IMG/VR virus record: IMGVR_UViG_2657244943_000011
Source: a virus
Lineage: Duplodnaviria > Heunggongvirae > Uroviricota > Caudoviricetes
Reading direction: 5' to 3' (one strand)
DNA length: 8,079 nucleotides
Shown here: piece after piece, positions 115 to 8,079 of the stretch
Numbering within the stretch: the first letter of the stretch is position 1
Layout of the letters: each line of letters starts with the position of its first letter
The notes under the pieces: model-generated
Databases searched by the model: none
What the model saw: the letters and a program-made list of their open reading frames with translations, nothing else
What the model was told of the DNA's origin: nothing
Position numbers and translations under genes: made by a program

Positions 115-190
115 GCCGATATAGCTCAGTTGGTAGAGCAGCGCATTCGTAATGCGAAGGTCGTAGGTTCGACTCCTATTATCGGCACCA
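115..190 (+). tRNA. thrW: tRNA-Thr (anticodon CGT)
   Basis: 76-nt cloverleaf read directly: acceptor stem GCCGATA pairs with TATCGGC, D-arm GCTC-AGTTGGTA-GAGC, anticodon loop TTCGTAA (anticodon CGT, reads ACG), T-arm GTAGG-TTCGACT-CCTAT, encoded CCA at 188-190. Matches my recollection of E. coli thrW, a known island integration site. Confidence 0.9.
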
Positions 191-1571: not shown

Positions 1572-1699
1572 CTGGTTGAGTATACAGTAGTAGACTTTGA
1601 GCGACGAAAGAAAAGGCTGTGTCTAGGGGCGCTCCCGAAAATCCGTACATCTCGACGGACTGGTACAGCCACTACAGTAGAGGACGCTGAGGTGTGCGT

Positions 1700-2724: not shown

Positions 2725-2922
2725 ATGTCAAATACGCTTATTCGTTTAACAGAAGTTCAGCGTAGAACTGGATATAGCAAGGCATGGATTTATCGCCTTA
2801 TGGGGCAAGGTAAATTTCCTGCATCAGTTAAAATTGGCTCGCGAGCTATTGCTTTCGTTGAGAGTGAAATTGACGAGTGGATTAATCAGCGTATTGCTGA
2901 ATCACGCGGAACAGCTACCTGA
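2725..2922 (+). CDS. alpA: AlpA-family (phage Vis/excisionase-like) helix-turn-helix transcriptional regulator
   Basis: 65-aa ORF with GAGGT 6 nt upstream of ATG 2725. Sequence MSNTLIRLTEVQRRTGYSKAWIYRLMGQGKFPASVKIGSRAIAFVESEIDEWI matches the AlpA/Vis HTH pattern as I recall it. Its position after a P4-type int is typical of CP4-57-like and PICI-like islands. Confidence 0.85.
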   Translation: MSNTLIRLTEVQRRTGYSKAWIYRLMGQGKFPASVKIGSRAIAFVESEIDEWINQRIAESRGTAT

Positions 2923-3000
2923 TTAAATGGCTACGGGGCCAGAAGCCCCCAGCTATCCACCAGCAAATAAAAGTAACTTAATTCGATAGCAGGAGTTTTT

Positions 3001-3801
3001 ATGAAACTGCGAAAAACGCCCGTACAGGGGCAGGGCTTCGTTCGGCCTGAAAACCAGAATCTGCAAAATTTCGGCGAAATTATCCCGGTTATTTCCGGCG
3101 TTATTGGCGGGCGTGAAACCAATATTGTTAGCGGCAGAGCGTTGCATAAGGCGTTAGGTGTAGGTCGCGTTTTCCGTTCGTGGATCAAGGGGCGCATTGA
3201 AGAATACGGCTTCACGGAAGGCGTGGATTATGAGGTTGTTGAATATTTGAGCCGACCCGATCCGGTGAGCGCAAAATCTCGCCAGCAAACAGCTCTTGAG
3301 TACATCATTACCGTGAACATGGCGAAAGAACTGGCGATGGTCGAACGCACCGAACAGGGGCGCGCCGTTCGTCAGTACTTCATCAAATGCGAGGAAGAGC
3401 TACACAAGGTTGCGCCTGTACGTTCCGCAGCGTTACGCCGGGAACTGAAAGCCCGTATCACAGTTGCCAGCTACTTTAAGCCAATGTGTGCCGCGCTGGA
3501 GGACTACCGGGCTGAACTGGATAAAAACACTCTACAGCACCACTACACCACGGAAGCCAATATGCTGGCGCGTATCGTGCTGGGTGGCATGACTGCAAAA
3601 CAGTGGGCGCAGGTGAACGGCATCACAGGCGAACCACGCGACCACATGAGCACGTTGCAGCTTGAGCACCTTTCTTACCTTGAGCAGAGCAATATCACGC
3701 TGATTGAGTTAGGCCAGGACTACCACCAGCGGAAGGCTGAATTAATTCGTCTTTCGCAGCGTTGGTTAGCCCGTCGCATGGAGGAAAACAGCCATGTGTA
3801 A
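3001..3801 (+). CDS. phage antirepressor-like protein (AntA/AntB N-terminal domain type)
   Basis: 266-aa ORF, AGGAG 6 nt upstream of ATG 3001, TAA stop 3799-3801. Segment RALHKALGVGRVFRSWIKGRIEEYGFTEGVDYEV...ITVNMAKELAMVERTEQGRAVRQYFIKCEEEL resembles the AntA-type antirepressor N-terminal domain from memory; not verified by search. Confidence 0.6.
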   Translation: MKLRKTPVQGQGFVRPENQNLQNFGEIIPVISGVIGGRETNIVSGRALHKALGVGRVFRSWIKGRIEEYGFTEGVDYEVVEYLSRPDPVSAKSRQQTALEYIITVNMAKELAMVERTEQGRAVRQYFIKCEEELHKVAPVRSAALRRELKARITVASYFKPMCAALEDYRAELDKNTLQHHYTTEANMLARIVLGGMTAKQWAQVNGITGEPRDHMSTLQLEHLSYLEQSNITLIELGQDYHQRKAELIRLSQRWLARRMEENSHV

Positions 3802-4260
3802 CGCTCTGACCGTTACAAAAAGAGAAAGCGCCCCGTTGCCGGAGCGCCTTTGTGAACGAATAGCCTACTGCGCCATATTGCTTACTGTCTACGAGGCAGA
3901 TTATAGCGTTGTGGTCGCACAGAGTGAAGGCGCTGATCACCGTTACTACAGCACGCCAGAAATGCAGAATATTTTGCTGCAAAATGCCGTTGGCCACGCT
4001 GTCCGGAAAGCAAAAAATTTTGCTGGTGGCGCGACTGATGCGATTTTGTCAGGTCGCCAGGTGCTGATCAATCTGATGTCTGATTTCGTTCTGGATAAAA
4101 CAAAGGCGACCGCAGAGAGCCGCCAGTGGAAAAGCTACATACTTGAACGCATCACCAACAATGCCACATTTGCGGCTGGTGGGCAATGTGTCAGCTTTGC
4201 ACCAATGACTCTAGGTTTAACTGAGGGTCATTATGGTGAATATGCTGGCTTGCTGGTGGG
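3794..4260 (+). pseudogene. uncertain ORF / possible gene remnant; good start signals but no credible stop (frame runs on to 5380)
   Basis: ATG 3794 overlaps the upstream stop (ATGTGTAA) and has TGGAGGA 8 nt upstream, the same coupled-junction architecture as real genes downstream. The first ~140 codons look protein-like; beyond about 4200 the translation becomes Cys/Ser-rich and then runs antisense through the minus-strand gene at 4519-4824. The end coordinate is arbitrary. Confidence 0.2.
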
Positions 4261-4518
4261 CTATTCCTGCTCTTTAACATCGCCATGCCGCGATGTTTTC
4301 CAGGTATGCGACCCCATTTTTGTGCGCCTGTACTCTTTAAGGAATTTCTCAAGGATAAACGCACAGGGCGCGAATCTGTCTGACTCATGCTCGTACGCTA
4401 TCTTTCTGCGCTGTCTTTTCCGTGCCGGTGATGGTGTATTGGTTGATTCTTTGTTGGTCATGGCGCTGCCCTGTAAAACGATGCACCGTAGTTCCTCACA
4501 CCACGGCGCTGGTGATGG

Positions 4519-4824
4519 TTACTCCTGTTCTTTGGCCTTGCGCCGCTGGAGTTCTTCACGCGCGACGGTGACGAGTTGCCCGATCTCCTCGGCTGCTTTG
4601 ACACCGATTTTTTCCACCTGCGCCAGTGCATCGAGCGAAGAAACCAGGGGATTTTCTCCGCTTCCTTCTGCCTGGCGGCGGGCGATTTCACCGCGAACGG
4701 CTGTAATCACGAAAGCGGCTATTGTTTCCCCTTCCGTTTTCGAATTTTCCATTTCCTCGATTACATCATGGGGGAAGCGGATATTTTTCATTTGCGATCT
4801 GCTGTTGATGTTTCCTGTTGCCAT
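4519..4824 (-). CDS. putative ribbon-helix-helix (Arc/MetJ/CopG-like) DNA-binding regulator
   Basis: 101-aa minus-strand ORF with well-formed composition, unlike the plus-frame translation of the same DNA. N-terminal KNIRFPHDVIEEME followed by helical GETIAAFVITAVRGEIARRQA fits a beta-strand/helix/helix RHH pattern. Divergent from the small-gene operon across a palindrome-rich intergenic region. Start could be ATG 4824 or the internal ATG 4791; neither has a strong SD. Confidence 0.5.
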   Translation of the reverse strand: MATGNINSRSQMKNIRFPHDVIEEMENSKTEGETIAAFVITAVRGEIARRQAEGSGENPLVSSLDALAQVEKIGVKAAEEIGQLVTVAREELQRRKAKEQE

Positions 4825-5014
4825 CAGAATGTCCGGTTATTTTGAGGTGTGTACACATTACACCAAAAGGTGTGTTGATAAAACACTTGACACTGTAGCA
4901 CACTTAAATCTAATCTGTGTATACACTAATGATTGTGGTGTATATACAGCAACGCCCCGCAGTGGTGGCACACATGCAGGGCGTCTAACCAAACCGTTAA
5001 ACGAGGTAACGATT
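4825..5014. promoter_or_regulatory. divergent promoter/operator region with three perfect 10-bp palindromes
   Basis: TGTGTACACA (4848-4857), GTGTATACAC (4917-4926), TGTATATACA (4939-4948); additional GGTGT/ACACC half-sites; consensus -35 hexamer TTGACA at 4887-4892 and TTGATA at 4875-4880. AT-rich relative to flanks. Confidence 0.5.
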
Positions 5015-5380
5015 ATGGCTGGAACACAGCATACCCAAACTCACCCTAAATTTATATACACCTTCCTGGCGGTGCACCGTGATTGCATAGCTGACGGTAA
5101 AAACACTGTACACGTAGCCGCTGATACGCTGGTTGATGCCTGCGAGATGCTCAATGACATGGGCTATATCTCGGCAACATGGAAAGGGCGCGAAGAAAAC
5201 ACGCTGTTTATTCAGAAATGCGAGAACAATTTTATCTGGCGTTTTATCGCCCTGAGCACAGCACAACCGCGCGTAATTCACATCGAGGCCACCAGCGAAC
5301 AGGAAGCGCGTCAGCAATCTCCTGATGGCTGCGTGATGGTATTCGCTGCCCGTATTCGCCAGGAGGTGCACCATGCATAA
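5015..5380 (+). CDS. hypothetical protein (first gene of small-gene operon)
   Basis: ATG 5015 with GAGGT 7 nt upstream, TAA stop 5378-5380; 122 aa. In frame with the run-on ORF 3794-5380 but with its own initiation signals. Stop overlaps the next start. Confidence 0.6.
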   Translation: MAGTQHTQTHPKFIYTFLAVHRDCIADGKNTVHVAADTLVDACEMLNDMGYISATWKGREENTLFIQKCENNFIWRFIALSTAQPRVIHIEATSEQEARQQSPDGCVMVFAARIRQEVHHA

Positions 5381-6226: not shown

Positions 6227-8079
6227 AAAACGCACCGAATTTAAAATATCAGCCAAAGGATAAATTCACCGAGGTAATCATTTTTGCCGGGACGGATGCT
6301 TACGCCCATGCTCAACACTGGATTGAAAGCGAAGGACGAAAACACGGCGATAACGTGCCACCTGTTTACCTGGGGCCAACGCAACTGGCAGATCTGGCTA
6401 ATATCCGCATTATCGACGATGAGCGCCGCTTTGCGCGTGTTTATATCGCGGGGGAGATAGAGCCAATCCAGATCAATGCTATCGCTGAAAAGCTGGCGCT
6501 GGCTGGCGTACAGGATGCGAAATTATACAAAGGCATCACCGACCGGGAGCCGGAGAACTGGCGCGACTACCTGCAACGGATCCGCGAACAGGCAGAGCGC
6601 GGGGAAACCATTCCTGAAGGAATCGGAATAGCTGGTGGATCACCCGGTAAAACAGACCCCATGAAACCGCATATTACCGAAAAAGACGGGGCGCTCTGGT
6701 ATATCGAGCCAATCCCCAACACCAGGGCAGAGGAGATGAATTATAAAGAAACCTGGCTGAGTGACCGGATGCGCACGGCAGGTATTGGTAACGACGGAAG
6801 GGAAGCGTATCTGATCATTGAAATGATCCCGGAAGGGACACAAAAAATTATTTACGAAGCGATGCCGCGCAATGAAATCGGTATGCCCGCAGGATGGGCG
6901 CGATTACGTGGGCGGGGAGTTGCAATCACTACCAGTGCCCATTTACTGAACAAACTGGCGGAATACCTGCAACGTCATGGAGATCGCACGGTGTGGGAGG
7001 TCACATCAACAGCAGGTTGGCATTGTGGAGCCTATGTTATGCCTGATGGCGAGGTGATTGGTGTGCCTGACCGTCCCGTAGCATTCTGCGGCGGATCTGC
7101 CGCCATCAAAGGCTATATTGTCAGGGGCACGGTGCATGAATGGCGAAATAATGTTGCTTCTCTGATGCGTGGCAATCACTCAATGATGCTTGGGGTGCTG
7201 GTCGGGCTGGCAGCCCCGCTAAATTCCCTTGTGGGTGGTAGTTGTTTTGGTATTCATCTTTTCGCGCAGTCGTCAGCGGGGAAAACCACGACTGTGGAGG
7301 CCGCCACCAGCCTTTATGGCGACCCTGAAATGCTTAAACTCTCGTGGGATGCCACCCGGCACGGGCTGACAGTGGAAGCAGCTGCACGTAATGACGGTTT
7401 TATCCCTATTGATGAAATTGGTCAGGGAGGAAGGGTTAATGACATTGCGCAATCCGCCTACAGCCTGTTTAACGGTGTGGGCAGGATTCAGGGGCGCAAG
7501 GACGGCGGTAATCGTGCGGTAATGCGCTGGAAAATAGCGGCACTAAGCACCGGAGAAGAAGATTTTGAAACCTTCCTGTTAAAAGGGGGAATTGCCCCAA
7601 AGGCAGGGCAACTGGTGCGACTGCTAAGCATTCCCTTTACCGATACAACGGTGTTTAACGGTTATGACGATGGTGATCAACATGCCAGGGCCATAAAGCG
7701 ACTTTCATCAAATTATTGTGGCGCTGCGGGACGTGAGTGGGTGCGCTGGTTATCCGCTCACAAGGAGCTGGCTATCAACACCACTTCAGATAAAGAAAAT
7801 GCCTGGCTGGGAAATCTGCCTGAAAATGCCTCGTCACAGGTAAGGCGAGTGGCATCGCGATTCGCCATGCTGGATGCAGCCGGAGAGCTTGCCACCGCAA
7901 TTACTGGCTGGACAACTGAAGAATGCCGGGAAGCAACGCAACGGGCTTTTGATGACTGGCTACAGGATTTCGGGCTGGAAAACCGGGAAAAATATCAGGT
8001 CATCAGTAAGCGTGCAGCAAGAACCGTATTGACGGGGATGTGTTATTCAGTCGGCAGTGCTACGCGCCAGGGGAGCAGT
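6223..8079 (+). CDS. P-loop NTPase, probable replication primase/helicase-like protein of the island (3' end truncated by window)
   Basis: Open frame 1 from GTG 6223 (in-frame TAA at 6217-6219 just upstream; GGGAGG 6211-6216) to the window end, at least 619 codons; not in the ORF track because it has no stop in the window. Walker A FAQSSAGKTT (about 7261-7290) and Walker B-like GFIPIDEIGQ (about 7396-7425). Large ATPase after small coupled genes is the usual position of the replication protein in P4-family/PICI-like islands. Confidence 0.7.
   Translation, partial: MKNAPNLKYQPKDKFTEVIIFAGTDAYAHAQHWIESEGRKHGDNVPPVYLGPTQLADLANIRIIDDERRFARVYIAGEIEPIQINAIAEKLALAGVQDAKLYKGITDREPENWRDYLQRIREQAERGETIPEGIGIAGGSPGKTDPMKPHITEKDGALWYIEPIPNTRAEEMNYKETWLSDRMRTAGIGNDGREAYLIIEMIPEGTQKIIYEAMPRNEIGMPAGWARLRGRGVAITTSAHLLNKLAEYLQRHGDRTVWEVTSTAGWHCGAYVMPDGEVIGVPDRPVAFCGGSAAIKGYIVRGTVHEWRNNVASLMRGNHSMMLGVLVGLAAPLNSLVGGSCFGIHLFAQSSAGKTTTVEAATSLYGDPEMLKLSWDATRHGLTVEAAARNDGFIPIDEIGQGGRVNDIAQSAYSLFNGVGRIQGRKDGGNRAVMRWKIAALSTGEEDFETFLLKGGIAPKAGQLVRLLSIPFTDTTVFNGYDDGDQHARAIKRLSSNYCGAAGREWVRWLSAHKELAINTTSDKENAWLGNLPENASSQVRRVASRFAMLDAAGELATAITGWTTEECREATQRAFDDWLQDFGLENREKYQVISKRAARTVLTGMCYSVGSATRQGSS

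Follow-up and report, generated by a model that had tools for sequence, protein, structure and literature searches.

A plus-strand open reading frame (ORF) of 528 codons, found in an 8,079-nt stretch of DNA assigned to the Caudoviricetes (IMG/VR record IMGVR_UViG_2657244943_000011; hereafter, the window), is probably the positional counterpart of the P4 eta frame, kept open for translated read-through into the replication genes. The frame opens at an ATG (3794–3796) that follows the Shine-Dalgarno (SD) sequence GGAGGA (3780–3785) and overlaps the stop codon of the antirepressor gene antA (TAA, 3799–3801) as ATGTGTAA. From there it passes antisense through two leftward genes, orf66 and ylcI, and through their operator region, and it is in frame with a gene of the Icd-like/Kil family, with which it ends (Table 1). 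An earlier sequence-only reading of the region had recognized the good SD and coupled start and had described the stop-free frame running antisense through a ribbon-helix-helix (RHH) gene (here, ylcI) and the operator into the frame of the next gene; our analysis confirmed both, the frame extending to 5380.

Between its start and that of the Icd-like gene (3794–5014), the frame contains no stop in 407 codons, whereas the two other plus-strand frames contain 20 and 23. Synonymous resampling of the two minus-strand genes left the plus frame open in just 17% and 14% of trials, and the whole open stretch is far beyond chance, at roughly 1e-9 if the segments are combined. Frames antisense to genes are nevertheless often open, and gene callers, including the Prokaryotic Genome Annotation Pipeline (PGAP), may extend an Icd-like gene to its furthest upstream start, so that the long frame might be a mere by-product of composition. 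PGAP does extend the gene in this way, producing many 'Icd-like' proteins of 214–262 aa, and the resampling shows that chance alone keeps the frame open in 14–17% of trials per gene. This account is nonetheless very improbable, given that 467 nt of non-genic DNA and the AT-rich promoter region are stop-free in this frame too, as against 7 and 11 and 6 and 6 stops, respectively, in the control frames, and that the frame is open in other genera and across repressor modules that are not homologous, in a codon phase that never varies, with control frames open for only 0–40 codons, as described below.

When the first 156 codons were used as a protein query, 112 proteins were retrieved, many of them 214–262 aa long and named 'Icd-like' by PGAP, which start in this region, differ in their middle segments and carry the Icd domain at their end. 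Because such a search is biased towards open frames, related loci were re-sampled by the 60-aa Icd domain alone, giving 86 loci in all, including five from other species and 80 from the viral collection. In 81 of the 86, the plus frame reaches the Icd start after 150 or more codons without a stop. Upstream of the Icd domain, the Icd frame is open for 150–456 codons in most loci, and the two control frames for 0–40. After clustering at 50% matched sequence, no stop occurred within the 200 upstream codons in 14 of the 25 clusters, as against one and none for the control frames. The frame measures 348 codons in Klebsiella, 248 in Tenebrionibacter and 250 in Acerihabitans, and it is open in three diverged Escherichia coli loci with different neighbors. 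Recognizable minus-strand genes, either YlcI-type, of a second RHH-like type, or orf66, are present in 81 loci and lie wholly inside the plus frame in 76 of these, while the codon phase between the strands is the same in all 102 gene instances, namely the phase in which third positions coincide. Where the repressor modules are non-homologous, the frame remains open, and insertions and deletions preserve it, as with 45 nt in locus L003 and 3 nt in the L052 group. Coupled starts recur as well: in L005, an ATG with a GAGG stands 20 nt past the alpA stop, and an ATG lies within −7 to +75 nt of an upstream stop in about 20 of 37 distinct contexts.

The sequence-only reading had explained the missing gene end by decay, that is, by a shorter gene starting at 3794 whose stop was lost through deletion, rearrangement or frameshift, leaving a frame that is open by accident, on the ground that no genuine protein could have 528 aa here. 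Such an origin would fit the good start signals of a 5' segment that has no recognizable protein family, the mosaic of recombined blocks in this region, and the antA N-terminal remnants fused to the frame in some loci. However, comparison with homologous islands, which that reading had itself proposed, revealed the long frame colinear in the relatives and no shorter ancestral gene, the very outcome it had named as speaking against decay. The long frame is the conserved state, present in 81 of the 86 loci, in other genera, in the model island EcCICFT073 (428 codons) and in P4 itself (eta, 214 codons), indels keep the frame, and no codon-position trace of a former protein could be found. We therefore consider decay extremely improbable. 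As to the remnants, in several islands (L063, L068, L089 and L200, the last being EcCICFT073, 7767–7900) the long frame begins with an AntA N-terminus remnant (MNTGYSPEQGRGFVRPEKQNLQNF...) that is fused in frame to the segment overlapping the candidate small RNA (sRNA) described below, which indicates that the antA deletions preserved the frame.

The 5' segment of the frame (3794–4260) displayed no sign of selection on its amino acids. Over 3797–4194, the three codon positions share the substitutions among 15 alleles almost evenly (26/26/28), and none of the six frames shows a coding signal, whereas the same measure gives 30/32/93 for antA and 1/3/15 for the Icd-like gene. Stop-creating changes in this interval number one in the long frame and 5–9 in most other frames. 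Residues 1–156 match no family in Pfam, NCBIfam or PHROGs, and single-sequence AlphaFold2 (AF2) modeling gave no confident fold (mean predicted local distance difference test [pLDDT] score of 35); the first ~140 codons, taken earlier as protein-like, thus appear not to be so. Conservation in the segment is mosaic, and in other islands unrelated sequence replaces it; the block 3825–4186 recurs at 99% identity in a different island without antA, and in L005 this module is joined directly to the end of ylcI. Since the 5' segment lacks amino-acid constraint and family membership yet never gains stops, selection seems, on these substitution patterns, to act on translation and not on the product.

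The junction with the Icd-like gene points the same way. The long frame is fused in frame to the Icd domain in 72 of the 81 loci; in nine loci the long ORF lies in the +1 frame relative to icd, and in L008, L022 and L039 it is unfused and ends in an ATGA overlap with the Icd start. Taken with the flat substitutions, these unfused loci indicate that openness up to the Icd start is what is kept, and not the peptide. The product of the first ~400 codons is thus probably irrelevant as a protein. The prevalence of in-frame fusion could also be read as a sign of a real 528-aa protein, an N-terminally extended Kil/Icd isoform with its own function, whose N-terminal part is disordered or evolves fast; codon-position bias may be lacking in disordered regions, and the P4 literature (PMC10111431) treats Eta as a protein. 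Such a protein is unlikely, considering that the N-terminal modules are non-homologous between islands and the substitutions evenly spread (26/26/28), that the ORF is unfused in 12 loci (+1 frame or ATGA overlap), and that about 170 of its codons are set by the opposite-strand genes.

The closest known arrangement is that of P4 eta/kil. The P4 ORF of 214 codons, on the minus strand at 8812–8168, has its start within vis/orf88 and the 65-aa Kil at its end. The NCBIfam profile NF033153 (phage_ICD_like) matches residues 480–523 of the 528-aa ORF (E = 2.4e-21) and residues 161–208 of the P4 214-aa ORF (E = 1e-20). In both systems a long ORF opens upstream of the early promoter, at the end of a vis/alpA gene, and closes as a Kil/Icd-like gene of ~65 aa, and the gene order is shared: alpA (followed here by antA), eta or the long frame, kil or icd, and on to the primase. 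In P4, full-length Eta is made only from the upstream late promoter, and its translation prevents termination and thereby allows read-through of the late transcript, as stated in PMC10111431, citing Forti et al. 1999 (J Bacteriol 181:5225). The role that we propose is alike, in that translation of the long frame would let transcripts from an upstream promoter escape termination. The two differ in length (528 versus 214 codons), in the gene to which the frame is coupled (antA here, vis in P4), and in the course of the window ORF, which crosses in antisense orientation a pair of leftward protein genes together with their promoter region.

By the distribution of its substitutions, the nested Icd-like gene, which has its own start, is truly coding. 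PGAP gives the gene (window 5015–5380; locus L001 6160–6381) three extents in near-identical sequence: it has 222 nt in 55989 and 366 nt in E189, and elsewhere PGAP calls Icd-like versions of 214–262 aa that extend far upstream. The first 60 residues of the 121-aa version weakly resemble the Icd motif (FIYTFLAV versus FIWRFIAL, E = 0.05); an internal duplication of the gene was considered and rejected, the match covering just eight residues at that E-value.

On the minus strand, ylcI belongs to the YlcI/YnfO family and diverges from the Icd/replication operon, and its position and phase, wholly inside the plus ORF, are conserved among the related loci. It is a candidate island repressor. Its match to the Pfam family PSK_trans_fac is weak (E = 0.003), no PDB sequence match was found, and a single-sequence AF2 model (pLDDT of 60) was all-helical with a low-confidence N-terminus, so that an RHH fold for YlcI was not confirmed. 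Downstream of it lies orf66, the small minus-strand gene whose existence the sequence-only reading had suspected; it is annotated by PGAP, matches phrog_21027 over its full length (E = 8e-33), and gives tblastn identities of 56–98% in many loci. The terminator stem of this leftward operon varies between loci but stays paired (GGCGACC/GGTCGCC, GGCCACC/GGTGGCC, GGCGGCC/GGCCGCC). The ends of orf66 and ylcI (4258–4275 and 4517–4534) encode the same peptide, KEQE*, in near-identical DNA (GGGCTATTCCTGCTCTTT versus GGTTACTCCTGTTCTTT), which looks like a recombination joint for gain or loss of orf66. Between ylcI and the Icd-like gene, the divergent promoter region carries a candidate rightward promoter and three copies of the palindrome GTGTRTAYAC, which, judged from their placement in the sequence, are likely operator sites for the leftward regulator. 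On the plus strand, the C/G ratio is 1.09–1.15 over the antisense genes and 0.71–0.86 in the sense genes; this mild C-richness is weak evidence for the kind of RNA on which Rho acts.

A small RNA, which the sequence-only reading had offered as one content of the region, may indeed be encoded there: a conserved promoter and terminator unit on the minus strand predicts a transcript of ~78 nt, antisense to codons 8–34 of the plus ORF. In L005-type alleles its U-tract overlaps the start codon itself. Alignment of 20 distinct versions at the terminator revealed a −10 box at a fixed distance that varies at its third base alone, while the promoter spacer and the first ~25 transcribed bases are heavily diverged; family 1 keeps the −35 element (TTCACT/TTCACA), and family 2 has an extended TGnTATAAT. 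A covariance model of the unit detected it in 35 of 91 loci, in every case on the minus strand where the long frame begins, and an exact terminator search of IMG/VR yielded 107 matches, which represent 44 versions (18 new) and all share TAnnnT at −54 to −57. Of 5,426 complete E. coli genomes, 392 contain the sRNA sequence, with no RNA annotation among the records listed. Scanning the window against Rfam 15 with cmscan at E ≤ 1 gave no match at the sRNA/long-frame region, the only hits being the tRNA and the int-alpA motif elsewhere. Compensatory variants are found in the terminator stem, as in L063, L086 and L089, and in that stem alone; covariation analysis of the RNA body revealed no consistent 5' structure. 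A trans target within the island was sought and rejected, duplex energies being no better than those of shuffled RNAs for six alleles. In L086 (1958–2050, minus strand), the conserved 3' half of the sRNA is fused to the orf66 3' untranslated region (UTR) with no recognizable −10 box, from which the module may also be made as a 3'-UTR-derived fragment.

These minus-strand features could be all that matters, the region consisting of the 3' UTR and terminators of the ylcI-orf66 operon together with an sRNA gene, with a plus frame that is never translated. The three intrinsic terminators and the sRNA unit are, in fact, the best conserved sequences of the region. Yet this explanation leaves unaccounted for the stop-free plus frame in every segment and lineage, the coupled start and the ATGA junctions with icd, and it is compatible with translated read-through, since an antisense sRNA needs a plus-strand target. 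As a complete account we hold it to be improbable.

Comparison with known immunity systems suggests what such an RNA might do. In the P1/P7 immI operon (c4 RNA–icd–ant), transcription farther downstream depends on translation of an Icd-family gene (Rho polarity), and this translation is blocked by a small antisense RNA; P1 C4 is processed from the transcript that it regulates and acts in trans on sites in it. The window resembles immI in pairing an Icd-family gene with a small antisense RNA, but its candidate RNA is a separate cis-antisense unit with its own promoter and no Rfam C4 match. P22 sar (against ant) and lambda OOP (against cII) are cis-antisense RNAs of ~70–80 nt with their own promoter and intrinsic terminator that, within an immunity region, run counter to a regulatory gene at its junction or 5' part. 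The likeness here is one of features, with no relation in sequence expected, and the target, unlike theirs, is a frame whose product seems dispensable. By analogy, the candidate sRNA might gate translation of the long frame and thus be a functional analog of CI in P4, C4 in P1 and sar in P22. P4-type C4 and isrK RNAs lie inside eta in P4, L004, L009, L050 and L056, and none was found in the window, L007, L010, L016 or L057. L004, the STEC383 island at the cspD/yljB site, carries a leftward small RHH-like gene (2922–3101, minus strand) upstream of icd together with P4-type isrK and C4 RNAs (3348–3424 and 3446–3533, plus strand) inside an 'ash family' pseudogene, and thus combines features of two immunity types.

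The window itself belongs, judging by its gene content, to the Gram-negative phage-inducible chromosomal islands (PICIs); it is of the EcCICFT073/EcCIMP1 kind and is integrated at tRNA-Thr beside proA. Its sequence matches E. coli ARS-C301 at 100% identity and both 55989 and O104:H4 at 99.9%; in 55989, proA/tRNA-Thr stands on one side of it and further island genes follow downstream. RefSeq places on its plus strand, from the left, genes for an integrase, a hypothetical protein, an AlpA-type helix-turn-helix protein and the AntA/AntB antirepressor (antA); a gap of ~460 bp (3802–4260) then follows, left blank in identical genomes, and beyond it stand the 66-aa hypothetical gene and the YlcI/YnfO gene on the minus strand and the Icd-like gene, small genes, DUF4222, the DUF927 primase, ProQ/FinO and PerC on the plus strand. 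The window thus has int and alpA at the left, a Bro/antirepressor zone, a primase replication module and a tRNA site, with no phage structural genes in this part according to the 55989 annotation; a zone scheme for such satellite islands is given in PMC10111431. The order int, alpA, antirepressor/Ash zone, icd-like, DUF4222, primase and PerC is shared with EcCICFT073 (PMC6092414) and EcCIMP1 (PMC11773190), and EcCIMP1 occupies the same proA/thrW site. In our analysis, the 428-codon frame of EcCICFT073 starts 53 nt past alpA with icd in frame, its sRNA unit scores 107.5 bits, and orf66-like and ylcI genes are embedded antisense. In the portions available, these two papers do not describe the long frame, the sRNA or ylcI as a regulator. 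For EcCICFT073, PMC6092414 reports that AlpA activates its own promoter and downstream reporter fusions, that overexpression of AlpA alone triggers replication and that helper phages induce alpA, and it states that the global repressor in Gram-negative PICIs is unclear.

We propose the following mechanism. On the evidence of the sequence and its comparison, ribosomes ending antA would restart at ATG 3794 and meet no stop over 1.2 kb, a distance that takes in the unconstrained segment, the opposite strand of orf66 and ylcI, and the operator region; the constant phase allows the wobble bases of the two strands to coincide. The steps that follow are drawn from the P4 and P1 precedents. Continuous translation would shield the nascent, antisense and somewhat C-rich plus transcript from Rho, the factor on which the terminator in the P4 eta circuit reportedly depends. 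Once AlpA switched on its own promoter, transcription could then run into the icd and primase operon regardless of the leftward repressor-like genes, with which the read-through would also interfere; such translated read-through, starting from PalpA, would account for the activation of the replication genes by one activator alone. While the island is quiescent, a minus-strand RNA of ~78 nt, made constitutively, would pair with codons 8–34, or in other alleles up to the start codon, and by blocking translation or triggering cleavage would cause stray transcripts to be terminated.

Several points weigh against this mechanism and against the kinship with P4. By BLASTP, the Icd domain of the window gave no alignment with P4 Kil, the two being related solely at the level of the NCBIfam profile. 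Outside the Kil domain, the window ORF shares no N-terminal similarity with P4 Eta, whose N-terminus matched only L050 and L056 among the loci by tblastn, and the CI (Rfam C4) and seqA (isrK) RNAs of P4 were not found in the window at E ≤ 1. The long frame is not present in five of the 86 loci, which are related to one another and derive mostly from Enterobacteriaceae, and the counts overstate their independence. Over orf66 and ylcI, the third positions of both strands coincide, so that substitution patterns cannot tell which strand is selected. The plus transcript would also have to survive head-on transcription from the leftward promoter, and we infer transcription, translation, Rho dependence and the sRNA alike from sequence.

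Table 1. Features of the window referred to in the text (stop counts are given for plus-strand frames 0/1/2; frame 0 is the long frame)
Feature	Position	Strand	Detail
Eta-like read-through ORF, 528 codons	3794–5380	+	stop-free; last ~120 codons are the Icd-like/Kil gene
5' ORF segment, mosaic of short conserved DNA/RNA elements	3794–4260	+	no amino-acid constraint
Stops, unannotated part	3794–4260	+	0/7/11
Stops, antisense of orf66		+	0/3/3
Stops, spacer		+	0/0/3
Stops, antisense of ylcI		+	0/4/0
Stops, AT-rich divergent promoter region		+	0/6/6
Icd-like/Kil gene, nested in frame, own start	5015–5380	+	GAGG 5003–5006, ATG 5015
Leftward operon read antisense by the plus frame (ylcI, hairpin, orf66, 3' UTR, terminator)		−	scan and comparison
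ylcI, YlcI/YnfO family	4824–4519	−	NF041551, E = 8e-18; phrog_6522
Hairpin and U-run between ylcI and orf66 (candidate attenuator or terminator)	4473–4509; hairpin 4509–4483	−	−17.5 kcal/mol, 10 bp
orf66 (66 aa), downstream of ylcI, wholly inside plus ORF	4461–4261	−	PGAP WP_000182301.1
Intrinsic terminator of ylcI-orf66 operon	4095–4124; stem 4124–4105	−	tail UUUGUUUUAU; scan
Divergent promoter/operator region	4825–5014		stop-free in plus frame (0/6/6)
Candidate rightward promoter	TTGACA 4887–4892; TAATCT 4911–4916	+	18-nt spacing; read from sequence
Palindromic 10-mer GTGTRTAYAC, three copies	4847–4856; 4917–4926; 4938–4947		repeat search of divergent promoter region
Candidate sRNA gene	3928–3815	−	promoter and terminator scan and fold
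Candidate sRNA promoter	−35 TTCACT 3928–3923; −10 TATAAT 3905–3900	−	17-nt spacer; predicted start ~3893
Candidate sRNA intrinsic terminator	3850–3825; U-tract to 3815	−	11-bp GC-rich stem, GCAA loop; 50 nt past promoter
Most widely conserved mini-block, with Chi site GCTGGTGG at 4175–4182 (+)	4149–4194		locus comparison
Chi sites	2957, 3723, 5289, 7304	−	octamer GCTGGTGG
Chi sites	4022, 4175, 4252, 6631	+	octamer GCTGGTGG
tRNA-Thr gene	115–187	+	71.8 bits; left edge of window, island attachment site adjoining proA
int-alpA RNA motif (Rfam RF02996)	1616–1683	+	44.2 bits, above gathering score; between integrase and next gene

Apart from these elements, the window is rich in Chi sites, with eight copies of GCTGGTGG in 8 kb as against 0.28 expected from shuffles. 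Besides the one in the conserved mini-block, two further plus-strand sites (4022–4029 and 4252–4259) fall in the 5' part of the long frame, so that three lie within 240 bp, just 3' of the leftward operon. Chi sites occur at 0.66 per kb across the 86 related loci and peak, on the plus strand, 400–1000 bp upstream of icd, and the octamer is retained in Klebsiella loci despite differing flanks; P4 has no Chi site. A conserved hairpin around the site in the mini-block was considered and rejected, its outer stem being broken in several alleles, and structure does not explain the conservation. Protection from RecBCD and a recombination hotspot for module swapping are both possibilities. The int-alpA RNA motif is also present in locus L010.

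What is known in this arrangement is P4 eta/kil. New are the candidate antisense RNA and the antisense course of the frame across protein-coding regulator genes, in one wobble-on-wobble phase and as a general trait of PICIs. More tentatively, and with less confidence than we place in the eta-like role itself, we suggest that Gram-negative PICIs may share a previously undescribed three-part switch: a frame that is kept solely for its translation, its peptide being throw-away, and that conveys transcription from the AlpA-activated promoter antisense across the divergent repressor genes and on into the replication operon, a phase lock that sets wobble base on wobble base, and a cis-antisense sRNA gate that acts at the first codons of the frame and varies between alleles. 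If true, such a switch would explain induction by AlpA alone and would identify both the missing repressor, in the YlcI family, and a new sRNA. For annotation, the frame left blank in some genomes and the 'Icd-like proteins' of 214–262 aa called in others, in thousands of genomes together, would be two views of one regulatory device. For satellite biology, where AlpA is the sole activator and no repressor is known according to PMC6092414, the frame, the YlcI-family gene and the gating RNA would supply a concrete model, directly testable in EcCICFT073, which has every element. The frame would further exemplify sense/antisense overlap conserved in a single codon phase and be a clear natural case of an ORF selected for being translated and not for its product.

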